DNA of 64,000 nucleotides from Protoeuglena noctilucae (Eukaryota): the NCBI GenBank assembly GCA_958009085.1, contig OY253681.1:310001-374000 (forward strand), read 5' to 3'. Position 1 is the stretch's first letter. Each line of letters begins with the position of its first letter. Below, piece by piece: positions 4,577 to 33,314 of this stretch. The notes below the pieces were generated by a model. The model was not told the origin of the DNA, did not search any database, and saw only the letters and a program-made list of their open reading frames with translations. The translations under genes were made by a program, and so were the position numbers.

Positions 4577-7500
4577 ATGCTGCAAAAGCGGCCCTCTCGG
4601 GCGCGGACGGCCCGCCCATGTCGCTGCTGCAAAGGCGTTGCGCTTTTCCGCGATCTCGCTCCCCGCGCCCGCCCCGCAGAGTCTTCCGATGAGGAGGTCC
4701 GCGCGAGCGACGTGTCCGACGATGACGATCTGATGGCGAGCGGGGACGAGGGGGTGGTGGGCGAGGAGGGGGACGGCGGTCCGAGCGACATCGTGGGATG
4801 GCGGGAGCCCGAGAGCGACGCGGGAGGGAGCGAGGACGAGCCGATGCCCGCAGAGGTGAGGAATCGGGGGCGGGCAATGAGAGGGGAACACATCAGAAGA
4901 CATGGTGCTACAGTCATGGCTTGTCCCACTCTGCACCTCTCCATGCCTCACACGCTATTCTTACTGATCACACGTACTGATCACAGTATTGCATCATAGA
5001 ACACAATGACATCGTTCCAATGCCATGATATATGCCAGTATCCCTCCCCTGTGCCCTCAGGGCGATGCCCCCCAGAAGCACCTGCGTGTGTTGGTGGACG
5101 GCCGACGCACGCGCATCCTGGGAGAGGGGCTGGTGAAGCCCCCATCGGCGCCCTACGAGCCGCACAAGCCGCGGGGCCGCGGGCGCCCTATCGACTCCTA
5201 CTCATCTGGGGAGGATGAGGAGGACTACGACGTGCGATCGGACGCGGTTGCGCGTTTGCGCGAGTGGGACGGCGCGGGTGGGGCGGTGGGTGCGGAGGAG
5301 TTGGGATTAGCCAATCGCGATCCCGAGGTGGTGTCCCACCTGGCGTCGGCCTACTGCCTCCTTCGGGCCTTCTCGTGGCAGCTCAAGCTGTCGCCGTTCA
5401 CGTTCGCCGAGTTGGTGGAGGCCGTGCACAGCCCGGGGCCCACGGCGCTCATGGACGAAATGCACGAGGTGAGTTGATGGGGGTAGGGGGGTGAGTTGCA
5501 TGTAACTTGGTGCACTCTCGTCTCGCAAGCACCCCAGCCACACGCACTCCCTGCACACCACCACTTACGCCCCCCCATCCCCACAGTCCATTCTCCGCCT
5601 CCTCTGCGCCAATGACACCAACGCCTTCCGCCAACTACGCAAGCACAACCCGGCTTTGCTTGACTCTGTCACGTGGCCCGAGTACCTGTGGGAGTGGCTG
5701 AAGGTGATGCTCGACCCGAGTGTGCGGTACATGAAGGGGCAGGGGGGGGCAGAGGAGATGGGGGGTGTGGAGGGGGGTGCGGGCGCGGGTGCGGGTGCGG
5801 GTGCGGGTGGGGGCAGGAAGGGGGAGGAGGGTGTGCGGGGGGCGGCGGTGGCGGCGCGGGCGGCGATGCGGGCGATGGCGGATGAGGAGGGGAAGGTGAG
5901 GGGTGGAAGAGAGTGAGGGGTTGTGAGGGGTTGAGGTATGACGAGTGTAGTAGCGAGGTGACATGAGGGGTGGGGATGCGGGCGATGGCGGATGAGGTGT
6001 AGATGAGGCAGATGAGACAACAGGCATTGCTTTACATTATACATCATCTAGTACACCCTGTGCGCCACCTCTATCCAACCCACATCGTGCCCTCCCCTCC
6101 CCCCACCTCAGTTGGAAGATGATGCAAGTATGGACCTCACCCCAGAGGAGCGCGAACTGCACCGATTGCGCGTCACCGCCACCTCCGGGCCTGAGGGGGC
6201 GAGGGGGGCGGCGGCGGTGGAGTGGCACGAGCGGTGCGCGGGGGACGTGGGGGCGTGGGTGGCCAAGGTGAGGAGATGTGAAGCGGGGTGGAGAGGGGAG
6301 AGTTGAGATGAGGGGGTTGTTGGTGTGGGTGTTTGGGGTGCGGTTGCTGTTGTCGTTCATCTTTCACAGCGCTACGTCTCTCACCACCCCTCACACCATC
6401 CCACCCTTCCCCCCCCGCAGCTGCGCCACGCCCCGCACCGCCGCCCTCCCCCCGCCCGCCTCTCCACCCGCCGCCTCGAGTTCTACTCCCTTTCCCCCCT
6501 GGTCAAGGCATCGATTCTCGCCACCCTCTGCGACGACCTTTTGGACACCGGCACGATTCGCAACGAGGTGGCCAGGCGCGAGGGCGAGGGGGAGTGGCAC
6601 ACGGGGCGGGGGGGCGAGGGTGGGGCGTATGCGATGTTTCTGGCGGAGGAAAAGGCGGTGCGGAGGGCGGCGATCGACCGGGCGGACGAAGCGGAGGGGG
6701 CGGTCCCGGAGGACGGGAACGTGGAGGCGTGCGTGTTGTGCGGGCTGGGGGGGAGCCTGCTGGTGAGTGGGGGATGAATGGGGCAGGGCTCATGCATGTA
6801 AGCAAACACCCCGCTCGTCTCGCCACCACCCCCACTCCCACCGCTACCCCCCCCCCCCCCCTCACCCTCACCCCCACCCTCACTGCTACCCTCACCCCAC
6901 CCATCCCTTCCCCCACCCCAGTGCTGCGACGGCTGCCCGGCTTCCTATCACATGCGATGCCTGGGAGAGACCCAACGCACAGTGGTTGTTGATGACGAGT
7001 GGCTGTGCCCCGAATGCACGGCGGGCGGGAGGGGGCAGAGCGCGGGGCTGCGTGTGCCATTCGCGGCTCGCAATGCAATGGGGGAGACGGCCACGATTGC
7101 GCACGGGGCGGCGTTTGTGGCGGGGGTGGCGAGGGGGCGGGGGTATGAGGAGGAGGCGGGGATGCGGTGCCTGGTGGGCAAAGAGGCTCTGGGATGGATG
7201 GGGCAGGCGGGTGAGTGGGGATGGGTGGGGTAGGGGTGGTGAGGGTGTGATGGCGATAGTCTGTGCCACTGCTACCTCCACACCCATCTCAGCCTCACCA
7301 CCCCATGCAAACCACCCATTCCCTTCACACCACCACTCCCCCCCCCCCCCCCCCTCTCTCCCCCCCCCAAGCCACCCTCCCCGTCGACAGCACCCACCCT
7401 CACCCCATCACTCACCCACGCCCCCCACCCCCTCTCCCCCCCAGCCACCCTCCCCATCGACAGCGGCCGCCGCCTGCAGCGCCTCTCCCTCCTGGACCTC

Positions 7501-10500: not shown

Positions 10501-13500
10501 NNNNNNNNNNNNNNNNNNNNNNNNNNNNNNNNNNNNNNNNNNNNNNNNNNNNNNNNNNNNNNNNNNNNNNNNNNNNNNNNNNNNNNNNNNNNNNNNNNNN
10601 NNNNNNNNNNNNNNNNNNNNNNNNNNNNNNNNNNNNNNNNNNNNNNNNNNNNNNNNNNNNNNNNNNNNNNNNNNNNNNNNNNATGCCTCACCATATCACA
10701 CATATACTAATTCTTACTCTCTCTTTATCCCTCCCAGGTCCTTCTGGCCGACCAGCTCAGGCCCTACCACCGCCGCTGGCTGCCGGCCTCGGAAGTCCCC
10801 CCCTGGTCGGCCCGCGCCTTCGAGGAGCAGACGAAAACGCGTACTGGCACTCAAAACACTGACACTGGCGGAGGGTAATGACGCTCACGGCGTGGGGTGT
10901 GCCGGGGTCGGTGCGGACCTGCTGGGGCTGGAGGGCGATGAGGGGCGCGTGCATTACCGACGCGCGAGAGGGATGCGATGGAGAGGGGGAGGGGGGGGGG
11001 ACGAGGGGGACGAGGGTGAGTGGGAGGGATAGATATGATTGGTAAGAATGATAGTGTGTGTGTGACCGTGTGTTGGCATTGCTCACGTGCTGCGCTGTGA
11101 GATGTGATATTTACCATACATAATATCATCATATCCCACCGCATCTCCCCCGCAGTGCCCGACAGCGAGGAGGGCCGCGTGTCGAGGGAAGGGGCGGAGA
11201 GGCCGGCCAGGGGGGGGAGGGGGAGGCCCAGGGTGTTCGACCCGGAGGTGATCAGGGATTGGATTGATCTGAGTGGGTGTTGGGAGACGATGACTGCAAG
11301 ACAATTGGTTAACTGTCACTCCTATCTCTGACACAAGAAGTGGAGATATAATTATGAACCATATTCACATGAACATCACATGTCCTCTCTCCCGTCCCCC
11401 CCCCCAGACCGGCGAGCGCCTGCTTTGCGTGTGCCGCACCGTCGACGACCCCTCGCGCCCCACCGCCCCATGCGCGACGTGCGGGGAGCAATACCATTTG
11501 GATTGCCTGGGTTTGACCGATACGGGGCCTTTCGAATGCCCGCGATGCGAGCGGCGGGCAGCGGCGGGGAGGGGGAGGGGCAGGGGGAGGGGGAGGGGGA
11601 GGGGGAGGGGGCGGAAGCGGGCGCGGGGCAGCGACAGCGACGGCGGGGACTCGGAGGTGAGGGGTCGCGGGTTCGAGTCATACGTGGCGGTGCGGGGTTT
11701 TTGTTGCGGGGGCTGCTTGTGTGTTGGGAGGGGGGACTTGGCAATGCGCTTGCAGGCCCGCAGCGCCCGGTCTGTTCAATAGTCACCATCATGTAACAAC
11801 AGATGTTACCAAGTCGCTCATAACTATAATATAATGATAACAATACAACAAATATCTCTCTATCTCCTCCCCCCTCAGTCCGACTGGTCCGGCATGGACG
11901 CCCCCTCCTCCCACCCCCGCTCTTACAATGCAAATGCGAATTTGAATGGGGGAGAGGGGGTGGGGGTGGCGGTGTCGATGGAGGGGCCGGGGAGCTCCGC
12001 GGAGGATCTGAGCAAGGCGCTGGAGTGCGTGAGGTGAGAGGGAGAGAGAGAGAAGGGGGGATGGGTTGTATATGCGATGCGTGTGACCGTCATTGTTTGA
12101 TTGCGACCGTCACATCGTTTGGTTGTATGTCGCTGAATGGGTATGTGCGTATCTGTATATCTGATATATCGACGATAAATATCCTATTCCCGTCCCCCAC
12201 AGGCACGTGATGGAGCTGCCCGAGGCGGAGGCGTTCATCGACCCTGTCCCGGAGGACGTGCCCGGCTACTACGCGGCCACGCGGCACCCCATGGACCTGG
12301 GCACGGGTGAGGGGGGGGGGGGGGGGGGGGGGGGACGGTGGTTGCGCTTCTATAATAGTAATGCATGTTATTATCTGACTGTGTATAATTAACACTCTGT
12401 GTATAGTTAACACGTTTCCTATTCCCACTCCCCCATCCACCGCAGTCGAGACCAACCTTTTGAATGGCAACTACAACCACGTCGCTATTGATATTGATCC
12501 CACAACACCACCTCCCCACTCCCCCAATCGCAGTGGAGCTCAATTTGCTGAACGGCAACTACAACCACGTGAGCGAGGTGCTTCGGGACGTGGAGGTCAT
12601 CTGGCGCAACTGCCGCGGCTTCAACGACCCTGGCAGCGATCTGGCGTCAGACGCGGACGCCTGTAAGGAGGCCATGGACGCCGCGTGGGGGAGGGCGGGG
12701 CTGCCGAGGCAGGCGAGTGTTGGTGATGGGGATTGGATATGATATATATGTTAAAGATGTTATAATCCACTTGCACGTGGTGTGATGTGAGGCCATGGAC
12801 GCCGCCTGGGGGCATGAACCCATCCATCCCTCTCACGCCATCCCATCAATGTTCATCACCACTTCCATTTCATCATTTTTAATTATTCTTTCTCTCATAA
12901 CTGCAGATGGCCCCCTTCGGCAAGCCCTGCATGAACCCGGCCGTGGTGGCGGGGCTGGACGTGGCGGCCGAGGTCATTGATCAAATCCTGGCGATGGAGG
13001 AGGCGCCGCCTTTTTCGGAACCAGGTGAGCGATTTTTGGCATTACTGATATTATTGTTGTTACTGTTACTATTACTGCTGTTATTACTGTCACACTCACT
13101 GCTGTCGTCCCTCGTCACTACCGACTCCACGCTACAGCGCGATTCAATTACATATAATTACGATTATCATCATTAAATAAATACAAATTCTTAAATATAG
13201 TCCCCATAACACCTCCCGCCCGCAGTGACCGACGCGGTGGCCCCCGGCTACAGCGCAGTGGTGCGCCACCCCAGAGACCTGGGCACCATCGCACGGCATT
13301 TGCGACGGGGCAGATACGGTTTCTCCTACGAAGCGTGGCACGACCTGCGCACTGTGTGGGCCAACTGCAGATTGTACAACGAGGGGGGCACGCCCATTGT
13401 CGATATGTGCGACGCGTTGGAGGCAAAAGCACAGGCGGCATGGGATGAGAAGGGGTTGCCGCACTCGGGTGAGGGATTGCGATGGTATGGTTATGGTAAT

Positions 13501-19754: not shown

Positions 19755-22700
19755 ATGGCCTGCGCCACCCAGGCGTTGGGCCGGCTATCTCTCTCGTCCA
19801 GGACTCGCCGACCTCTCGGCACGCGGAGCTTCGGCCAGCGCGCCAGCAGCCGTCGCGCGGAGGATGGCGAGTGCCTTGGTCCTGTGCCTGCTCGATGTCG
19901 CGGGTCCTGCCCCACCATGGCTGGCGATCGCGCTGTCGCTATCGATCAGTCACGCCGAACGCTGCGCCGGCGCAGTCCCTGCTTTCCATCGCGCGGATTC
20001 CTGCGATCCATTGCGTGTGCGTCTTCCCTCGCAGCACGCGGGCCGATGAGGGCGGATCCTCACGCCCGCTCGCGCATCCGATTGCCGCCGTCGCGCTCCG
20101 TCAGCGGGACCGCGGACATACCCGGCATGGAGGGCACCGCGCTGTGCACCTCGCTCACGGCTACGACGGTCGACGGGCAGGCGAGGGGCGGCCCGACGCC
20201 CATGATTCTCCGTGCGCGAGCTGTATATGCTAGCCATAAACGTGCTGCGCCACGTCGCGGCCCGCGAGGAGTGGCTCGCAGGCTACGGCCTGGCGCCATC
20301 GCCCGCAAGCTGCGTCGGCTTGAGGGCGCGCGCCCGCGGGCTCCGCAGATCGCGGAGATGAAGGAGGCGATTCAGAATGGCGCGGATATTGTGGAGATTC
20401 GTCTGGATTTCATCCAGGACCTGGACGCGGCGGGGGACATCCCGCGTCTGGTGCAAGCGAGCGACCTTCCCTGCATCGTCACGTTCCGGCCTTCCTGGGA
20501 GGGCGGGCGCTACGAGGGGGACGAGGCGGAGCGTCTCGCTGCGCTCCGGTGGGCCTGCGAGGCCGGTGAGCGTCTGCTAGCTTCGCAGACGGCAGCGATG
20601 CGAGCGATGTGCGAGGTGCAAGCGCCACGCATGGCTTGCCACCCACGCTCCCGGCCACTCCGCCTCGCTACGCAGGCGCCGAGTTCGTCGATGTGGAGCT
20701 CCGCGTCGCTCAAGTGTTCTTCCGCGCCCCGGGCGACATGCCAGAGACGACGGCAGTCATCGTCTCCCATCACGACTACGAGGGCACGCCAGAGGACCCG
20801 GTGACAGTGTGTGTGGGTGTATGGGTATGTGGGTGTGGATATGTGGGTGCGGGGGTGTGGATGCATGTGTGGGTGTGTGGGTGTGGGTGTGACTGTGGGG
20901 GCATTAGTGTAAGTAGTACTACTCTCACCCTGCCCTCTCACCCTGCCCCTCTCCACTCTGACTCACTCACGCCCGCCACCGCCTGCCCTGAAGGTCCTGC
21001 AAGCACTGCTCCAGGCGATGTGGTCTGTGGGCGCCGACGTGGTGAAGATCGCCACCACCGCCCGCGACGTTTCTGACGCCCGGCGTGTTCTGGCGCTGCT
21101 GGAGGGCCGGCAGGGCCCGACCATCGCGCTGGCGATGGGGGAGCGGGGGGTCGCCACGCGCATCCTGGCGCCCAAGTTCGGGGGATTTCTGACGTTTGGG
21201 GCGCTGTCTCCCGAGAGGCAGAGCGCCCCGGGGCAGCCCACCATCGCCGAGCTGAGGTGAGGGGGGCATGGTTGGGATGCGATGGGGTGTATAGGGTGGG
21301 GTGGCTTGAGCTGAGGTGAGGGGGGATGGATGGGGTGGATGGGGTGTATGGGATGTGTGGGGTGGGGTGGCTTGAGTGTGGTGCATGCGTGTCTGCTTAG
21401 ACCCATGCTGCCTCGCATTCATCCACACCATGCCACAGCCCTATGTCATTTGCTTTGCATCGTTATGCTCAACATTCCCCTCAATCCATGCGCATCTCTG
21501 CAGGGACCTGTACCGCCTCAAGTCGATGAATGCCGACACGCGCGTCTACGGCGTGGTGGGCAACCCCGTGTCGCAGTCCAAGTCTCCCGCCATCCACAAC
21601 CCCGCGTTTGCGAAGGAGGGAGTCAATGCGGTGTACCTGCCTTTCTTAGTCGACGATTTCGGTGCTTTCCTCCAAGCCTACTCCGACCCACACTTCGCCG
21701 GTGAGTGGTGGCAAGTAGCCTCAAAATTGCAGCCGGCGATGCGGCATAGCGGCCCCATGTGATGATCCCAACCATTATGTAACATCTGCCAACACATGTA
21801 TCACTCAAGTACTGCATTGCAGTATCCAGTACCACCCATCCTTCTTCAACCCCCCCAGGCTTCTCCGTGACCATTCCCCACAAAGAAGTGGCGCTGCGGG
21901 GCGCGGATCGCATGGACGAGGTGGCGACGAGGATTGGGGCATGCAACACGCTCGTGAGACAGCCAGACGGGGGACTGCAGGGGTACAACACCGATTGGGC
22001 GGCGGCGCTGGATGCCATTGAGAGGGCTGCGAGGCGAAAGGTGAGGGAGATGGGGTGTGGGTGTGGGGGTGTGTGGGTGCAGGGTGGGGGTTGGGGTGTG
22101 GGTGTGGGTGTGGGTGAGGGTGTGGGTGGGGGTGTGGGGTGTGGGTGAGCATGTGGGTGAGATGGGAGGTGGCCATGCATAAGCCATGAATGGTCCATGG
22201 CTGGTGTCATAAACACACCGTATGATAAGACACAAAGTCCTCTCATCATCCCCACCCATTCCGCACCCCCAGTGGGGCGACTCGCCTCGCCCGCTCGAGG
22301 GCCGCACGGTGGTGGTGCTAGGGGCGGGGGGTGCGGCGCGCGGCATCGTGTTTGGGGCGGCCAGCCGTGGCGCTGCCAAAGTGATCGTGGTCAATCGTAC
22401 GCGCGAGAGAGCGGAGGCGCTGGCGGCGGAGGTGGAGCCGGCCGGGGTGTGCACCGCCGCGAGCCCAGAGGACCTGGACTCTGGCGGCGTCACTGGCGAC
22501 GTTCTGGCAAACACAACGTCGGTGGGTATGACCCCCAAAGTGGACGACTCGCCGGTTCCTGCGGGCGTGGCGGCGCGGTTCGGTGTGGTGTTTGATGCGG
22601 TGTACAACCCCCGGTTCACGCGGCTGCTGCGGGAGGCAAAAGAGGGGGGGGCGGAGGTGGCGGACGGGGTGGAGATGTTTGTGGGGCAGGTGAGGGGGGG

Positions 22701-23026: not shown

Positions 23027-23639
23027 CGCTCTTTGTGTCACTTTGATCGAGATCCATGGTGGGGTTTGTAATGGGATATCAGAAAGGGAGTAGGAGAGGG
23101 GTATGGGGTGTGGGGAGGGTTGACCTAGTGACGGGGGCTGTTGTTTGGCGTGGGTGGGAGTGGGTCGGTTGAACGAGAGGGGTGACACGAATGAATCGAT
23201 ATCGACGGGTGTCCGCGCTTCAACAGCGACGCTCGGGGAATGGTCAGTCACACTGCGCCCATCACGCGTGAAATGCCCAGAGCCGCTTCTAGAGTTGCAT
23301 GGCCAACCGCTTTGCGTGCCCAATGCAGCATCGCCGGCCCCACCACCGCCACACACCAGCCCTCATGCTATGCCCTTCTCACCCCATCCCTCAAGATCCT
23401 GCACCTTTTAGATGAGCACGAAGCTGTGCACGCATCACACTCCCCAACACCCCCACGCCCTCGCTCCTGCACCCTCCCATCACCACACACCGACACCTTC
23501 ACACCCGAACCATCCCACCCACTCCCCTCACGCATGCACCTTTCATAACCTCACACGGACCCCCTCACTCCTGCACCACTCCCTCACTCCTGCACCTTCC
23601 CACCCCACCCCACCACCCCGTCACTCCTGCACCACTCCC

Positions 23640-26211
23640 TCACTCTTGCACCTTCTTAATGAGCATGAAGCTGTGCACGTAGTCCATCCCGAAGTTCTCC
23701 GGGTCTTTGGCCGCCTCCGCCTCCATCCTCTTAAACAGCTCGTCGCTCAAGGCGCGGCGCTGGTCGGGGGAGCGGGAAGAATCCAAGGCAGACTCGAAGG
23801 TGGAGTTGGACCAGGTGCTGCGAGGATAATAATGAGAATTACTATCATTGGGATCTGAGAAAGTAGAGTTGGACCAGATGCTGCGAGGATAATAATGAGA
23901 ATTACTATTATTGGGATCTGAGAAAGTAGAGTTGGACCAGATGCTGCGAGTGAGTGGTAGTGGTGAGAGTTAGTATCAATACCAACATAGCCAATGGTAG
24001 TAGCGGTAAGGGTTGGTATCGATACCACGGTAACCAACTCAACTCAGCAATGCCGCCATAGTCAAATCAACATCCCATTCCATACACAGCCACATCCCTA
24101 CCCTATCACTCGCAACGCACCGGAACGTGGGGATCATCCACTTGGCGTGTGCCGCGGGGTCTCCCTTGTTAGCCCGGTAAGCCTCTCGGAAGGGGCAAGG
24201 CGTGACCACGAAGGAGTGGTGGAGCAGGCGCAAACCCGCATTATGCACGGCGCCGCCTGCAGTGAGATGAGAGGGTTGGGATGTGCTGTGCGGGGGGATG
24301 AGACGTGATGTGCTGCGCTGTGTGTGTGGGAATGAGACGACCCAAGCCCCACATTCCCCACTACCCATCACCCCACCCATCCCTACCCCCCTCACCGTCC
24401 GCAAAAACCCCCACTACCCACCGCACCTCATCCCACCCAGTCCCCGCCCACACCCAACTCCCCTCACCCTCCGCGAACGCCCCCACCGCCTCCTCCTCCG
24501 TCCGGTAGTGGTTGCAGAAGGTCGTCCTCTCATACTCCTCTTTGCTAATCAACCCCTCCTCCGCCATGCCACGCCACAGACGGTCCATCGTGTCATACAT
24601 CCCGGGACCGATGTCGGTCTTGCCCAGCCACCACCCGCGGGGATCCTCGGCGAAGTTGGCGATGACGAGGTGACCCCCCGGGCGCAGCTCGCGGGCGCGG
24701 GAGAGGAGAATGGACTCGAAGTCACGGGCCGCCTGCTCCTTGAACTTGGCCTTCTCGGTGCCCGTCGCCTGCGGGGGTGTGTGTGTGGGTGTTGGGCGTC
24801 GGTTGGACATCGGTAGTGCGCTGTGTGCAGCTTGGCCTTCTCGGTGCCCGTGGCCTGCGGGGGTGCGTGCGTGTGTTGTGTGGGTGTGTGGGTGTGTGTT
24901 GAGGGTTTCAGCATCGATGCTGACTTATGTGCAACGTGGCATGCTCGGTGCCTGTGGCCTGCGGGTGTGTGTGGAGGTGGGGGTGTCTGGCGTTGAGTGC
25001 TTGAGCATCGATGCTGAACTATATGCAGCTTGGCCTTCTCGGTGCCCGTCGCCAGGTGCAGTGGCTTAGTACTACCAAGCGTATGCAGTACCTACATGTA
25101 ACGACATGTATACTCGCCTGCGTGGAGTGGATGCCGGTGGAGATGGTGCAGGGGAGCTTGGAGAGCCAGTGCATGGCCGTGAAGGAGACAGAGAGGTCGA
25201 CGGAAGAAGAGGGGAAGGCCTGCTGGAAGAAACTGGTGCCGCTGCGAGGGTGGAGTGGTTGTGGCATGTGAGTGGGTGATGTAAGGGAGGTTGATGATAG
25301 CTGTAGCTGCCGTGGGTGGCAGTGGCATGTAAGAGGTGAGGGAGGCGATGGCGCTTGTATGAGAGGGTGAGGACGGCTAAGGCAGGCTGTGATGCGAAAG
25401 CAGTGCTGAGCGACCACACAGTACATAGTCTATCGTCGCTGCTCCCCGCATCTCACCTGGCCACCACAAATACCCCGGGGTGCTTGGTCAGCGGATCCAC
25501 GCCCCCCTTGACGCCCTCCACAGGCCGGATGCCCTGCGGCGGTGGGAAAAGGCTTGGCTTTGCAATTGCCATGCTCGCACCGAAGCATGCTGAAGTGCAC
25601 TGCCGCCATCCGTCGCGCCGCCCGGCGCCGCGGGCGGATAGCACGATGAATGCCTCGCCTGGGTGTGGAAGAACAGGCTCTTGAAATCGCCGTTCGGCTG
25701 GTCCTCGTAGCAAATGCAAATCTCCTTGCTGGGACCCGCCTTGGCCCGCACCGCCTCCACCACGCGGTGCATCAGGGGCAGCGAGGTGCCGCCGTCTGCA
25801 GTGCCGAAATCCGCGATCGTGAAGGGACCGGCGCCGGCGAGCGGGGTCTGCGGGGAGCCGCGGGGGGAGGGCTATCGGCTTCGCGGCCACTTCGGGAGCC
25901 GCTGCGCGTCCGGCTGAAGCCCGCCGCGCTCGCGCGGTCAGCGCCGGGTGCAAGATAACATGGTGGTTTGCAGACGCTCCGAATCGCCGGCTCATCTCGC
26001 GAGGCCAGGCGCGCCGACGGTGCTGAGTGGGCATGAGTGGCCCCCTACACACGGCGAGCGCACACCGCGGTCGTACCTCCTCCAGGGCGCGCATCACGAG
26101 CTGCGTTGCATTCTCGATCACAGTGAAGCATCCGCGAGTGGCGATGGAGTAGAGGCCTTCTCCGTCCGCGCCAAGCGGCACGTGAACTTTTCCGAAGGCG
26201 TCCTGCGTCAT
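23640..26211 (-). CDS. SABATH (Methyltransf_7) SAM-dependent methyltransferase
   Basis: Spliced model: MTQDAFG...GEGLYS, FTIADFGTADGGTS, YEDQPNGDFKSLF, SGTSFFQQAFPSSSVDLSVSFTAMHWLS, QAARDFESILLSRARELRPGG, IPTFRTWSNSTF, GMDYVHSFMLIKKVQE*. These are the hallmark SABATH motifs. Confidence 0.9.
23803..23950. repeat. 63-bp tandem repeat (~2.3 copies) overlapping the last splice acceptor of the SABATH gene
   Basis: gagttggaccag(g/a)tgctgcgag starts at 23803, 23866 and 23929; the first two copies continue gataataatgagaattactat..tgggatctgagaaagta. Confidence 0.9.
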
Positions 26212-26451
26212 GACGAACCCGTGGTGGCTACCGACCGCCGAGACGACGTGCTATCGACCCAAGCGTGTCTGCAGATGGAGGAGGGGCGGCGCGGTATCTC
26301 AGCAAGCAAGATCCCCCAGGTCAGACAGCCAGTGTGCCCGTGTGCCCGAGATGCGATCCACCCGTTGCGCTTTCCCTTCCCCAGTCGGGTCCCACGCCTC
26401 GAAACCCACCTGATTTCCATAGGTGGGTGATCGAACCGCCTCAAGATCATC
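26212..26451. promoter_or_regulatory. Putative bidirectional promoter between the SABATH gene and the dehydrogenase-oxidase fusion gene
   Basis: Only 240 bp separate the two divergent ATGs (26211 on -, 26452 on +). No specific motif identified. Confidence 0.5.
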
Positions 26452-29400
26452 ATGCACGCGCGCCTGCTAACGGTTTGCGGGGCTGGGCCCGCCCCGGGGG
26501 CACGCGCGGACGGCCGGGCGGCCGTGCCAAAGCGTAGCCGCTTACTCGGTCGCCCAGTGAGTCCGTTAGTGCTATCGTACGACACTCCGCAAGGACGGCT
26601 CCTCGTTGGGTGTGATGGCCCGCTGCAGACGAGTTTGCCGGGTAATGGAGGCCTCAGGTGTGGCATGTCATGCGTGTGGCTCGAGTGGGCGCCGACCGGG
26701 CCTCGGTCGCGCGCGCGTAGTGGGCACAACCCCTGCCACACCCACACATGCCCGCACTCCCCGCCCGCTGCTTCTCCAGCAATGATACTTTGCTGTCCAC
26801 ATTGTTTACCCTATCAAGAAACGGCGAGAGCGCCACGATCACACGTACAGCTGCCCTTGCGCGCATCCCGGGTGCCTTGGGATGCGCGGGGATGCGTGGC
26901 CCCGCGCGCGCGTCCCGGGCCTCGCTGCGCGGAGGAAAGCATTTGGCGTCCTCCAGTTTCATCCTTTCTCCTCGTCAGCATCGATGGCGGCGATATTTTT
27001 CGTCGCATGGGACGCCGCGCGGCCCTGCATACGGGCGCCACCCGCAATTCCCGTGTTCGCGCCTGCTCGCAGGCTCTGGAAATACGCGAGCCCCGAGGAC
27101 GCCATCAAGGAATGCTGTGCCCTGAGCTCGGGGATGTCAAAGAAGGTGAGCTGCACCACGCGCGGCTCCGCCCGACCCCTTGCAAGCCCCGTGGCGGCGC
27201 AGGTGCCCGGCCCTCGCGCGCGGCTCGGCGCCGTGCCATGGGGCGCCCGGCCGCCGCATCGCACGTATCTTATCAACACATTCCGATCCCCCTGCGCAGC
27301 ACACGGTATATAACACGGGCTTCAGCGGCGCCAAGCTTGTGGTGGATGCGATCGGCGACCCAAGTGATGTGGACGAGATTCGGCTGATGGACAGCGTGGC
27401 CAAGGCGCTCGCGGAGCTGCAGGGTGCGATTTACACGGGCTGCGACTTGGGCACGACCGAGGAGGACATGACGTACCTGTCGAGCTTGACGCCCTACGTG
27501 CTCGCGTCCATCGAGAACCCAGTCGGTGCGTGCGTTGGCAGATGCGACGAACTGGCAGATGCGATGAGCAGCCCCAGATGGTCTCTACAAGGGGTGGCAA
27601 ACCCCTTCAGCCGTTACTCGCACAGCGGATGGCACCAGTGCTAGGACAGCGCTGTCTGCCTGCCATGTGATTGTGCGATCCACCTATGCCATCCGACTGC
27701 CCCGTCCCGTGACCCTGCCCCCCGCAGACGCCAACGCCTCGACGGGCCACGGGGTGTTCGGGTCCATCCAGGGCGCGCTCGACAGCCGCGGGGGCGTGGC
27801 GGGCAAGACCTTCCTCGTCAAGGGGACCGGCAAGGTCGGGAGCGTGACGGCGCAGCTCCTGGCCGGCGCGGGCGGGCGCGTGCTGACCTACGACATCAAC
27901 GCCGCCGCCGCCGACATCCCCGGCTGCGAGAACGTGAGCCACATGGACTGGCGGGACGTGGAGTGCGACGTGTTCGTGCCGTGCTCCGTGTCGGGGTTCA
28001 TCAACGAGGACGTCGCAAGCCGGCTCAAGTGCTCCCTGGTCATCGGAGCGTCGAACGTCCCCTTCGCCGACGGCGCGGCCCTCTCGGCGCTCCTGGCCCG
28101 TGGCATCGACTTTGTGCCCGAGGCCGTCTCCTCCGCCGGGGCGGTCCTGGGCGACAGCATCGAGCTCTACGCGGCGGACGCCTACCGTCACGCGCGACCC
28201 AGCCAGGTGTACGCCTTCGTGCGCTCCCTGACCCGCCAGAAGACGCGCGAGCTGTTCGAGGCGGCGGCGGAGCGCGGGCGACCCGCCGCGCTGTGCCTGG
28301 GGGACGTGGAGGAGGACCCCTCGTCTGAGCCGTGCGGGACGAGGTTCCGGGCGTTTGTGGAGGATGCGACGGAGGAGGTGGACACGCTGGTCATCGGTGC
28401 CGGGATGGCCGGCACGGCGGCGGCGTACTACCTCACCAAGGACGCGCCGGGTCACCGGGTGGCGGTGGTCGAGAGCCGCTCGGTGGCGAACCAGTGGGCC
28501 TCCAGCCATGGGCAGTCGCGGATGTACCGCCGGATGTACAGCGACGCGTACTTTTCCCAGATGCAGTCGCGCGCGCTCGAGCTGTGGCGCGAGATTGAGG
28601 CGGAGCGCGGCGTGGCGCTGCTGCGGGAGAACGGGCTGCTGTTCTACGGCGAGACGGATACGGGCGAGACGGTCGAGGGGTCCGTGCCGGGCGCGAGGGC
28701 GGTCATGGAGGAGCTGGGCATCCCGCACGAGTACTTCGACACGGGGGCGGCCATGGCCGAGCGCTGGCCGGACATGAAGGCGGACGAGGCGTTCCAGGGG
28801 GTGTTCGAGGCCACGGCGGGCAAGATCGATAGCTCGCTGGCGTGCCGGGCCATGGTGGACGGCGCGGTGGAGCGCGGGGCGCGTCTGTACGAGAACGAGG
28901 CGGTGGTGGACCTTTGGATCGACCGGAAGGGCGCCATGCACGCCGCCACCTCCCAGGGGCGCTTCTTCCGGGCCGGCAAGGTCGTGGTGGCGGCGGGCGG
29001 GTGGACGCGGCGCGTGCTGCAGCACCTCAACGTGGATATGGACCTGGAGGTGCACAGCGTCGCGTACGGCCACTACCGCGTGCGGGACGTGGAGACTGCG
29101 GCGCGCATGCCGCAGTGGTTCTGTTTCCGCAAGAAGCGAGGGGAGCTCGACGGGGGTCTGTACTTTGGATTCCCTCCCGAGGTGACGAGCGCGGGAGCTG
29201 GGCGTGGCTGCGGCTGGCACAGAGCCTGGTTGCGCTCGTTGCGCATGGATGTGACGATTGCGTGGCTGGCAGCGCGGGTCAGGTCGCGTGTTGCGGGTAG
29301 CAAGCAGCTGCACCAGGTAACAGCTGCACCCGCTCGGCTCGTCGTCGCAGGACCCGAGCGTGCCCGTCATCAAGTGCGGCATCGACTTCACCCCCGATGC

Positions 29401-29968
29401 CATGGGCCTCATCCGCGACTCGATGTCGGGATTCAAATACCAGACGGAGAAGGAGATCGCCAAGCTCATGGACGACTTCTTCTTCGAGGCGAGTCCCGTT
29501 ATGTTCCCCACTTACATTCTCTCATAATTTGCAGCGGTGGACGTGCTGACTCAGTGCGACGCTCCAGCCAGGTCAGCTCGCCTTCGCTTGTCGACCGTCG
29601 CCGATGCATGGCTCGCCACCCGCGCGCAGAACTGGCCGTGCATCGAGGAGCGCCTCGACATCCAGTGCTCGCCCTACACCATGACGCGCGACCAGTACTT
29701 CGTGTTGGGCGAGATCCCCGACATGCCGCAAGTGATCGTATTCAGCGGCGGGTGCGGGCGCGCGTTCAAGTTCGGGCCGCTGCTGGGGCAGTGCCTCGCG
29801 GACCTGGCCCTCGGCAAGGAGCCAAGCTACGACATCGCGCCCCTCTCGCCCTCCCGGCCGGCCGTCGGCCTCCAGGTCACGCCCGTGACGCCGCACACGG
29901 CCTCGCTCAGCCCGGCTGCGGCAGCACGGCGCGCGGCCGTGCAGAGGGACCTGGCGCGCACGGCCTGA
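26452..29968 (+). CDS. Fusion protein: Glu/Leu/Phe/Val-family amino-acid dehydrogenase + MSOX/NikD-type FAD-dependent oxidase
   Basis: Exons 26452-26657, 27073-27145, 27300-27525, 27728-29181, 29351-29488, 29630-29968. Dehydrogenase motifs GNGGLR|LWKY, GMSKK|H, GFSGAK, YTGCDLGT, TGHGV, GTGKVG, GASN. In the same exon follow VIGAGMAG and SSHGQSRMYR, and later CSPYTMTRDQYFVLG and SGGCGRAFKFGPLLG. Confidence 0.9.
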
Positions 29969-31853: not shown

Positions 31854-33314
31854 TTAGAGCACGGCGGCCGTCACGGCGTCCAGGGCCGCCAGGGCCTTGG
31901 CGAAGGCCTTCTCGGCCTTGGCGCCGTCCTTCTTCTGCACCCACAGGTCCGTCTCCTCGATGGCGCGGATGAAGTCGTTCTTCAGGGCCTGGGCCTTGGC
32001 GCGCTCAGCCTTGGGCTTGACCTCCGCGAGCGTGTTGAGGTCGAAGCGGAGGGTGCCGAGCTGGCGGCGGAGCTGCTCCTTGGCCTCGGTCCAGTACGCC
32101 TTCTTGATGTAGGGGAGCACGTCGTTCTTGATGCGCTTGGTCGACTCCGTCACGCGCGTCTTGGTCAGGGCCAGGTCGCCGCGGGGCTGCGCGAGGCCGT
32201 CGCGCACCGCCTGGGGCAGCGACAGGTCGCGGGCCTCGTAGATGATGTCGAAGCCGTTCTTCTTGGCCTTGCGGTCATCGAAGATGTCCACGGGCGTCTG
32301 CAAGCACGCGGGGGCAGTCACGCTCAGGCTCGCAGGCTTGTGGCTCGGGTCGGCCCCGATGGGCGCATGAGAGGACACAGAAGCGATGCAGCGCGGCAAC
32401 GCACCACGGCGAACGCGGGGGCCGCGATCGTGAGCGCCAGCAGGCCAGCAGCGATCGACTTCTTGTCGAACGCGCGGGCAGCCACCGCCTTGCGCCTGCG
32501 TGCGAGGTAAGGGAACGTCTGAGATCAGACAGCGCGCTCGGCAGGGGCCAAAGTGAGCAGCGGACCCGGAAACGGTCGCCGAACTCGGCCCCGCGCACAG
32601 CGAGCCCAGTTGCGCCGGACGCCGCGGTGACAACTCGTCGAAATTGAGCGATGCGGGACCGTGCGATCCCCAACCGAGGCCGCCCGGCGCGGGACGGCCT
32701 GCTAGATGACGCCCGGGATCCACACCAAATCTGGCCCGCGCGCGCGTGATGCGGGCGAAAGGGGCCCGCGCGCGGCCCATCTGAAGATTAAGGAGCCAGG
32801 AAATCAGGGCGGACGGTCCCGGGACCGCGCGACACTCACGTAGCGGGGGCGACGGGGGCTGCGAGCAAGAGAGGGCAGGGGGACGCGTCAGCGACGATGG
32901 GGCCGCCCGAGCACATCCCATCCGATGCATGAAGCAAATCGGCGATCGGCACGAGCTCCCGGAGGGTCAGGCGCCCCCGCACGAGCCGGGGTCCAGCCTC
33001 GGCGCGATTTCCCCGCCCGATGCGCGGCGGGGGCGGGCCAATCGACTGCCCCAGGCATCCGAACGCAACAAACAAGCCCTCGGCTCACCCTTGACGGACG
33101 CGGCCGAGAAAGCGACAGCGCTGCGGGCAGCGAGGGGGACAGGTCGGTGAGGCAACGGCCCGCGCGCGCGCCGACGCTCTCAGACACGCGAGGGCGCGTA
33201 TTCGAGCTAGAGATGCACGGATACGGCCCAGGGCCCCGAGACTCGGCGCGGGGCGACCCCCTCGCGCGCGGGGCCCGGGATCGACAGCCCAGCCCCTGCC
33301 GCTAACCTCTGCAT
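31854..33314 (-). CDS. psbQ: Photosystem II oxygen-evolving enhancer protein 3 (OEE3)
   Basis: TPVDIFDDRKAKKNGFDIIYEARDL...YIKKAYWTEAKEQLRRQLGTLRFDLNTL. Upstream exons give a bipartite transit peptide (AVAFSAASVK...AAGLLALTIAAPAFA). Confidence 0.93.

Follow-up and report, generated by a model that had tools for sequence, protein, structure and literature searches.

One of the closest described counterparts of the locus considered here is the NikC/NikD pair of nikkomycin synthesis in Streptomyces, in which NikD, a flavoenzyme resembling monomeric sarcosine oxidase (MSOX), converts piperideine-2-carboxylate (P2C) to picolinate following a lysine 2-aminotransferase step, as described in the accessible part of the source (PMC4021061). 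The locus itself is a pair of divergent genes located in a 64,000-nucleotide stretch of contig OY253681.1 from Protoeuglena noctilucae (assembly GCA_958009085.1, positions 310,001 to 374,000 of the forward strand), hereafter called the window. One gene codes for a methyltransferase of the Methyltransf_7 family and the other for a fusion protein with an ELFV-type amino-acid dehydrogenase as its N-terminal half and a DAO/MSOX-type flavin oxidase as its C-terminal half. Judging from the sequences, the three enzymes almost certainly constitute a functionally coupled module that is conserved and inherited together, and it is moderately probable that the two genes specify a three-enzyme pathway from L-lysine to homarine (N-methylpicolinate).

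The module resembles NikC/NikD in that an MSOX-family flavoenzyme would act after α-deamination of lysine, but an NAD(P)-dependent ELFV dehydrogenase would catalyse its first step in place of the pyridoxal phosphate-dependent aminotransferase of Streptomyces, in eukaryotes both enzymes form a single fusion protein, and the product would be an N-methylated osmolyte, whereas the picolinate made by NikD goes into an antibiotic. The dehydrogenase has the fold, the Pfam family, the GG.R motif and the catalytic lysines of leucine, phenylalanine and tryptophan dehydrogenases (1leh, 1c1d, ScyB), differing from them at the positions of Leu40 and Val294, which are occupied by Asn and Asp. The methyltransferase shares Pfam family PF03492 with plant SABATH N-methyltransferases and with the bacterial fatty-acid O-methyltransferase, although unlike the plant SABATH enzymes it belongs to a separate deep clade. 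The trigonelline synthase of coffee methylates the ring nitrogen of a pyridine carboxylate, and the chemical logic of the proposed pathway is, by analogy, that of the NikC/NikD picolinate route followed by N-methylation of the trigonelline-synthase type. With regard to gene organisation, the glycine betaine genes gbmt1/2 of marine Synechococcus cluster with the proVWX transporter genes. A similar clustering of presumed osmolyte synthesis genes with a transporter of the same class is seen in the module, in which a betaine/choline/carnitine transporter (BCCT) gene may follow the oxidase gene, but the enzymes and the solute are different and the transporter is a BCCT protein instead of an ABC transporter. 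Finally, the homABCDER operon of marine heterotrophs, responsible for homarine catabolism with ring opening to N-methylglutamate (Nat Microbiol 2026, PMC13236597), concerns the same metabolite and includes a betaine-type transporter, but it encodes a degradation route, and no gene families common with the module were seen in the accessible part of that paper.

The following background is taken from the accessible portions of the papers concerned. In particles of the surface ocean, few nitrogen-containing small molecules are more abundant than homarine, which serves as a currency between phytoplankton and bacteria. It was detected in both Synechococcus strains tested, at a high level in WH8102 and at an about 100-fold lower level in WH7803, in four of six diatoms and in one Emiliania huxleyi (Heal et al. 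2021, PMC8269262), the concentrations given in that paper having later been corrected downward. Synechococcus WH8102 yielded fully labelled homarine, made de novo from nitrate and bicarbonate. Thalassiosira pseudonana likewise accumulates homarine (PMC12817926). In E. huxleyi homarine acts as an osmolyte regulated by salinity, and it contributes to the osmoregulation of Platymonas, a green alga (PMC3721227). Its synthesis and degradation pathways were stated to be uncharacterised, and homarine has been kept out of gene-based surveys because its synthesis genes were undescribed (Heal et al. 2021, PMC8269262).

No homarine synthesis genes and no cluster of this kind were found by a full-text search of the literature, most subscription journals lying outside its reach, and none were named in the titles of homarine papers published since 2023 among the matches listed. 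Nothing relevant on a cyanobacterial operon or on a lysine origin of homarine was found in the literature search either. The original prediction had said that no characterised algal cluster of this type was known, and this holds for the literature searched.

Distribution and linkage of the three genes

When an alignment of 19 fusions was used as the query against metagenome contigs, 80 loci harbouring a relative of the fusion were obtained. A methyltransferase of the same family adjoins the dehydrogenase and oxidase genes in 34 of these 80 loci, the remaining 46 being mostly short contigs without flanks. Where at least 1500 bp of upstream flank is available, the methyltransferase is present in 23 of 24 loci, with the only exception of L038, which is an oxidase-only match, and where at least 1000 bp is available, it is present in 29 of 31. 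When clustered by their oxidases, the 34 linked loci form 24 groups at 90% identity and 11 at 70%.

The three enzymes are arranged in three different ways. The head-to-head arrangement of the window is found in the green-alga-like loci L001-3, which are GC-rich and 66-67% identical to the window's genes, and in the diatom-like loci L016, L031, L044, L046, L057 and L064. Prokaryote-type loci contain three separate genes on the same strand, forming an operon with the order methyltransferase, dehydrogenase, oxidase, in which the gaps between tblastn match edges range from -36 to 114 bp or the stop and start codons overlap. In loci L007, L008 and L021, which represent a further eukaryotic lineage, all three enzymes are encoded by one open reading frame (ORF) of 1200, 1237 or 1177 aa with the domain order ELFV_dehydrog, DAO, Methyltransf_7. 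The occurrence of a gene pair, an operon and a single polypeptide in different lineages is nearly the strongest comparative evidence that can be had for a shared pathway, and three such forms of one pathway make a clean Rosetta-stone case. The original prediction had proposed looking for the three domains as neighbours in other algae and in marine cyanobacteria, and they are indeed linked in green-alga-like, diatom-like and picocyanobacterial sequences. It had also cautioned that adjacency alone is weak evidence, as head-to-head pairs are common in the window, which is the one point in favour of a chance pairing of unrelated genes. That caveat is overtaken by the counts given above. Chance adjacency is refuted by linkage kept in three arrangements from cyanobacteria to diatom-like algae and by the triple fusion, and its probability is practically nil.

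Full-length relatives of the fusion are 39-67% identical to it, and its named carriers include Pedinophyceae sp. YPF-701, Pseudo-nitzschia multistriata, Corethron hystrix, Chloropicon roscoffensis and Chloropicon mariensis, the last of which possesses both genes. An Atlas cluster of 68 members that contains relatives of the fusion has Haptophyta as its commonest phylum. Loci L072 and L077 (GC content 67%) belong to marine Synechococcus: the L072 oxidase falls into a 90%-identity cluster with the protein deposited as sarcosine oxidase of Synechococcus sp. RS9909 (WP_007100843.1), the listing for this cluster also includes a BCCT transporter with the adjacent accession number WP_007100844.1 and a BCCT protein of strain WH 8101, and the FabI neighbour in the Synechococcus locus clusters with Synechococcus FabI.

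The many loci with a low GC content (26-33%) are considered cyanobacterial on the following grounds. Cyanobacteriota is the phylum most often represented in each of the three Atlas clusters nearest to their dehydrogenase; an ORF flanking a low-GC locus exceeds the cut-off of the NCBIfam model for ssr1528, a cyanobacterial family; the contig that carries the operon in L048 also contains the cyanobacterial small RNA Yfr8 (13040-13243, plus strand, 56.3 bits); and a glutamine-II riboswitch (7088-7150, plus strand, 65.8 bits) is located 1.4 kb upstream of the methyltransferase-dehydrogenase-oxidase-BCCT operon of L051 on the same strand. Going by GC content, they probably belong to Prochlorococcus.

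The BCCT gene directly follows the oxidase gene in seven of the 80 loci, including both Synechococcus ones, and the BCCT match scores 431.9 bits in L051 and 424.7 bits in L072. Among the 80 loci it is absent from the eukaryotic ones and from the cyanobacterial ones with a GC content of 26-27%. If the product is a betaine, a transporter of the betaine class would be a fitting member of the operon. The original prediction had also expected the carriers to track homarine producers, and Synechococcus, diatom-like algae, the haptophyte-rich cluster and marine green algae do correspond to the reported producer groups.

Enzyme families and the proposed pathway

The pathway is envisaged as follows. 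The ELFV-type dehydrogenase domain would remove the α-amino group of lysine oxidatively, and the resulting keto acid would cyclise spontaneously to P2C. The fused flavin oxidase domain, by its likeness to NikD, would then aromatise P2C to picolinate in a four-electron oxidation, and the Methyltransf_7 enzyme, whose gene is served by the shared promoter, would transfer a methyl group from S-adenosylmethionine (SAM) to the ring nitrogen. The substrate of each enzyme, the product and the N-methylation are all what we infer from the protein sequences.

The first half of the fusion gives a Pfam ELFV_dehydrog match of 59.7 bits on the large exon (cut-off 23.4), and the DAO match for the second half, 121.3 bits against a cut-off of 27.9, lies on the same exon, which bears out the predicted fusion of an amino-acid dehydrogenase with an FAD oxidase on the plus strand. 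The best solved relatives of the dehydrogenase are phenylalanine, leucine and tryptophan dehydrogenases. In the alignment to leucine dehydrogenase (LeuDH) of B. sphaericus (1leh), Lys93 and Lys105 of the window protein correspond to Lys68 and Lys80; in the related loci the carboxylate-binding Lys68 is kept in 61/61, the catalytic Lys80 in 63/63 and Asp115 in 65/67. Side-chain specificity depends on two positions, Leu40 and Val294 in LeuDH and Lys89 and Ser380 in glutamate dehydrogenase (GluDH), according to the accessible part of the paper describing them (PMC2723916). The GluDH lysine holds an anionic side chain, so the invariant Asp found here at the partner position points to a cationic one, such as that of lysine or ornithine, and the Asn/Asp pocket, that is, two positions, suggests a basic substrate. 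The names LeuDH and phenylalanine dehydrogenase given in source annotations were rejected because the two hydrophobic positions are Asn and Asp in every related locus (see Table 1), and an assignment to ScyB was rejected on scores of 61-90 bits against an NCBIfam cut-off of 600. In fact, no NCBIfam model reaches its cut-off for the methyltransferase, the dehydrogenase or the oxidase, the methyltransferase matching none at all. We know of no ELFV member that deaminates lysine at the α-position, and if the assignment is true, lysine would be a new substrate class for ELFV dehydrogenases.

The oxidase aligns over its full length to NikD residues 2-387 and shows the DAO/MSOX fold with an N-terminal FAD-binding GxGxxG motif. 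Among PDB structures NikD is the best match of the window oxidase with 137 bits, followed by the best MSOX with 117 and N-methyltryptophan oxidase with 90; NikD also ranks first for the Synechococcus oxidase (116.9 vs 108.5 bits) and when only part of the oxidase is used for the search (74.7 vs 56.4 bits). Across the 80 loci, the residues corresponding to NikD Arg50 (79/79), Arg53 (80/80), Glu101 (80/80), Tyr258 (79/79), Asp276 (77/78) and Lys358 (77/77) are conserved, while in the alignment MSOX has Ala in the Glu101 column and Lys in the Asp276 column. We take Arg53 and Lys358, which correspond to Arg436 and Lys746 of the window protein, to be the carboxylate-binding residues of NikD, and Glu101 and Asp276 to be its active-site acidic pair.

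Despite that, Trp355 of NikD, which presumably stacks over the flavin to give an FAD-Trp charge-transfer pair, is found in none of 77 loci, the column being occupied by Arg in 43, Gln in 32 and His in two. The cysteine that binds the flavin covalently (Cys321) is present as Cys712 in the window protein and is retained in 23 of 77 relatives, the cyanobacterial forms having Val, Ile, Leu or Thr, and the window's own oxidase has Phe at the position of Tyr258. Because Trp355 is never kept, Cys321 is mostly lost and Tyr258 is replaced in the window protein, the domain is, as far as its residues go, NikD-like but not to be filed as NikD. The likeness claimed by the original prediction thus stands with respect to the best solved relative and to Arg53, Glu101, Asp276 and Lys358, and fails at Trp355, the flavin cysteine being variable. 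The same Trp355 column contains His or Gln in L038 and in L039 and L056, two loci with a GC content of 67-69% that harbour the dehydrogenase and the oxidase; in all three no methyltransferase is present within the short flanks of the contigs, and the dehydrogenase-oxidase pair may exist without a methyltransferase in other bacteria.

Source annotations call the oxidase a sarcosine oxidase, and its best NCBIfam model is that of N-methyl-L-tryptophan oxidase, with 186-204 bits under a cut-off of 257. These names would suit a catabolic module in which an N-methyl amino acid is demethylated in the manner of sarcosine oxidase and then deaminated, with the BCCT transporter importing the substrate and the methyltransferase being unrelated or regulatory. 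Such a reading makes little sense of a SAM-dependent methyltransferase fused behind both oxidoreductases, the main carriers are photoautotrophs (Synechococcus, diatoms and green algae), NikD outscores both MSOX and N-methyltryptophan oxidase, and the dehydrogenase pocket suits a charged side chain and not glycine or tryptophan. It was rejected on these four grounds as very improbable.

The main alternative, which we nevertheless consider unlikely, is that the three enzymes do form one pathway from a basic amino acid but make another N-heterocyclic or N-methylated compound, for instance a pyrrole-2-carboxylate derivative formed from ornithine via pyrroline-2-carboxylate, or a modified picolinate or pipecolate betaine. 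The linkage, the fusion and the operon are evidence of coupling only, the Asn/Asp pocket suits any cationic side chain, including that of ornithine, which would give a five-membered ring, and the departure from NikD at Trp355 extends to all relatives read at this position. A pyrrole nitrogen, however, is a poor methyl acceptor, a pyrrole derivative is no betaine and would leave the BCCT neighbour hard to explain, and the closest solved relative, NikD, aromatises a six-membered ring. Moreover, we know of no other abundant metabolite with a distribution over Synechococcus, diatoms and haptophytes, which also counts in favour of homarine over another product.

The methyltransferase of the window matches PF03492 with 36.2 bits on exon 5 alone (cut-off 29.8), compared to 72.5 and 75.5 bits for full-length cyanobacterial relatives and 84.9-101.8 bits for the triple fusions. 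Of the solved structures, that of the Mycobacterium fatty-acid O-methyltransferase 5f2k, a carboxyl O-methyltransferase, comes closest with 82.6 bits, and plant O- and N-methyltransferases score at most 52 bits. A FastTree phylogeny was built from 84 rows, 55 of 80 bacterial rows having been dropped at random, with support values that are SH-like only. It places the cyanobacterial linked methyltransferases in one clade (support 100) and the unlinked proteobacterial enzymes in another, and it contains a eukaryote clade (96) with a subclade (98) in which the window protein is joined by the triple fusions and by all linked proteins of the diatom-like type, the plant JMT being a long outgroup branch. 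The name SABATH methyltransferase used in the original prediction is therefore right as to the Pfam family and wrong as to the plant clade, given the outgroup position of JMT and the bacterial nearest structure.

The family is named for carboxyl methyltransferases, and together with 5f2k this would allow a pathway that makes picolinate and then methylates its carboxyl group, giving the ester methyl picolinate and no betaine. The solved relatives in the family include the ring-N methyltransferases CkTbS, CkTcS, DXMT and XMT; we know of no residue diagnostic for N- as opposed to O-methylation, and the sequence leaves the choice between the two undecided. An uncharged volatile ester, on the other hand, would give a betaine transporter no reason to be in the operon, and homarine is abundant in phytoplankton, whereas methyl picolinate has, to our knowledge, never been reported from them. 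Methylation of the carboxyl group is therefore regarded as improbable.

The family is much wider than the module. A total of 376 relatives of the methyltransferase were found in bacterial genomes, and a tblastn search detected neither the dehydrogenase nor the oxidase within 10 kb in any of the best 80 of these 376 loci, which means that the methyltransferase alone is no marker. In one of them, L083, an unrelated DAO-family gene lies 1.3 kb away. The neighbour scan of these 80 loci (L081-L160) covered 57 of 132 listed ORFs, from 29 loci, and recurrent neighbours were Ldh_2 dehydrogenases (four loci), the TRAP transporter component DctP (seven loci), an amidase (three Arenicellales loci) and a luciferase-like monooxygenase (two Mesorhizobium loci). 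Ldh_2 is presumably the family of piperideine- and pyrroline-2-carboxylate reductases, and the proteobacterial methyltransferase together with Ldh_2 may take part in another pathway, one whose substrates are cyclic imino acids. This would suggest that the methyltransferase family handles several cyclic imino acids, which adds some weight to a product other than homarine.

Relatives of the methyltransferase also occur in the animals Branchiostoma belcheri and Lingula anatina (P0070, P0076, P0084), being 42-45% identical to the alga's protein and located in the tree inside the eukaryote clade but outside the subclade of the window protein. No animal dehydrogenase-oxidase fusion was detected among the 48 matches of the fusion search. 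Marine invertebrates are classic homarine accumulators, and animals can obtain picolinate from tryptophan breakdown. If the pathway is as proposed, these lone methyltransferases could be animal picolinate N-methyltransferases.

The assignment of homarine has to be weighed against a number of points. The departures of the oxidase from NikD, the carboxyl O-methyltransferase as the nearest structure together with the undecided site of methylation, the suitability of the pocket for ornithine, and the 376 bacterial and the animal relatives of a methyltransferase found apart from the other two enzymes have been mentioned above. In addition, work on animals speaks for other precursors. Animals are reportedly able to make homarine from glycine and succinyl-CoA, a route ascribed to Netherton and Gurin. 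Quinolinate derived from tryptophan was named as the homarine precursor in animal studies, as mentioned in the accessible part of Heal et al. (PMC8269262). In the culture survey, as far as the accessible part of the same paper goes, homarine was found only in Synechococcus, diatoms and E. huxleyi, whereas the operon is present on Prochlorococcus-like contigs as well, and the accessible part of a 2026 paper states that prasinophytes were not seen making homarine, the window being of green-algal origin. All of these weigh against homarine as the product.

With these points taken into account, we lean slightly towards the view that the module represents the missing homarine pathway of marine phytoplankton, consisting of a new ELFV dehydrogenase of lysine type, an oxidase resembling NikD and a Methyltransf_7 N-methyltransferase of non-plant type, which picocyanobacteria, diatoms, haptophytes and green algae would share as one unit. 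If true, some wild Prochlorococcus populations would make homarine, strain differences such as that between WH8102 and WH7803 could be explained, and new producers would be predicted, for example Prochlorococcus-like populations and Chloropicon-type green algae. The three genes would then serve as a marker for mapping homarine producers in metagenomes and metatranscriptomes, and a long-open question of ocean biochemistry would become directly testable.

Gene structure and expression

Both genes are located where the original prediction had placed them, the methyltransferase gene on the minus strand and the fusion gene on the plus strand, with start codons at 26211 and 26452, that is, 241 bp apart with 240 bases in between. 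The exon models of both genes (Table 1) were taken from spliced contigs of marine metatranscriptomes from two studies, which show no differing letters compared to the window and skip all introns. The assembled coding sequences (CDSs) include the independent database models P0002 (fusion) and P0049 (methyltransferase) letter for letter, and P0003 and P0004 match the N-terminal exons of the fusion. The fusion stretch without RNA cover, 26805-27031, falls within intron 1. Both genes are expressed and spliced in the sea, and the organism is marine, shares under 0.3 (runs X5 and X6) and values of 0.00 having been left out of the evidence on habitat. On the methyltransferase side the RNA contigs extend to about 26256, and on the fusion side they begin at or before 26392, so that their ends are about 135 bp apart and delimit a compact shared bidirectional promoter region of this size.

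Table 1 Coordinates of the gene pair, its domains and specificity-related codons, and other features of the window
Feature	Positions	Strand	Remarks
Methyltransferase gene (Methyltransf_7 family), CDS span	23640..26211	-	7 exons, 379 aa
Methyltransferase exons	26211-26077, 25847-25659, 25533-25457, 25241-25118, 24768-24468, 24256-24121, 23817-23640	-	stop codon included
Intergenic region between start codons	26212..26451		240 bp; shared bidirectional promoter region
Dehydrogenase::oxidase fusion gene, CDS span	26452..29968	+	6 exons, 811 aa
Fusion exons	26452-26657, 27073-27145, 27300-27525, 27728-29181, 29351-29488, 29630-29968	+	stop codon included
ELFV-type amino-acid dehydrogenase domain	26551..28368	+	residues about 34-382, 3 introns inside; Pfam PF00208
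Asn65 codon	26644..26646	+	LeuDH Leu40 / GluDH Lys89; Asn in 59/59 related loci
Asp311 codon	28153..28155	+	LeuDH Val294 / GluDH Ser380; Asp in 74/74 related loci
NikD-like flavin amine oxidase domain (MSOX family)	28369..29866	+	residues about 383-778, 2 introns inside
Glu485 codon	28675..28677	+	NikD Glu101
Asp665 codon	29384..29386	+	NikD Asp276
Arg743 codon	29759..29761	+	NikD Trp355; the family's departure from NikD
63-bp tandem repeat	23796..23950		2.5 copies, 95% matches; starts in the last methyltransferase exon and extends into the last intron
PsbQ gene	31854-32930		same window

The GC content of the window is high, at 56-70% over 2-kb windows, and the source organism is a photosynthetic eukaryote that belongs to the green lineage and has introns in its genes. 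The gene pair is flanked by genes for shikimate dehydrogenase and APS kinase.

Of the 11 introns in the two genes, eight are of the GT-AG type and three of the GC-AG type: the methyltransferase gene has four GT-AG and two GC-AG introns, and the fusion gene has four and one, respectively. A GC-AG share of three out of 11 over positions 23818-29629 is high. The 63-bp repeat spans the acceptor-side edge of an exon, so extra copies of this edge are present which can be read as pseudo-exon peptides; only the copy at 23817 is used by the RNA contigs. One methyltransferase GC-AG intron (24769-25117) contains more copies of the start of exon 5, readable as the peptide 'ATGTEKAK..', and a repeat was flagged inside it at 24871-24902. 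The exon-intron edge is crossed by a single unspliced contig from an RNA library (24744-25054, depth 5), which could represent either intron retention or DNA. Two low-complexity tracts rich in CA/CT, at 21900-22150 and 23400-23655, produce His-Pro and Thr-Pro runs in the ORF lists; they are intron or intergenic DNA, located by the shikimate dehydrogenase gene and past the methyltransferase stop codon.

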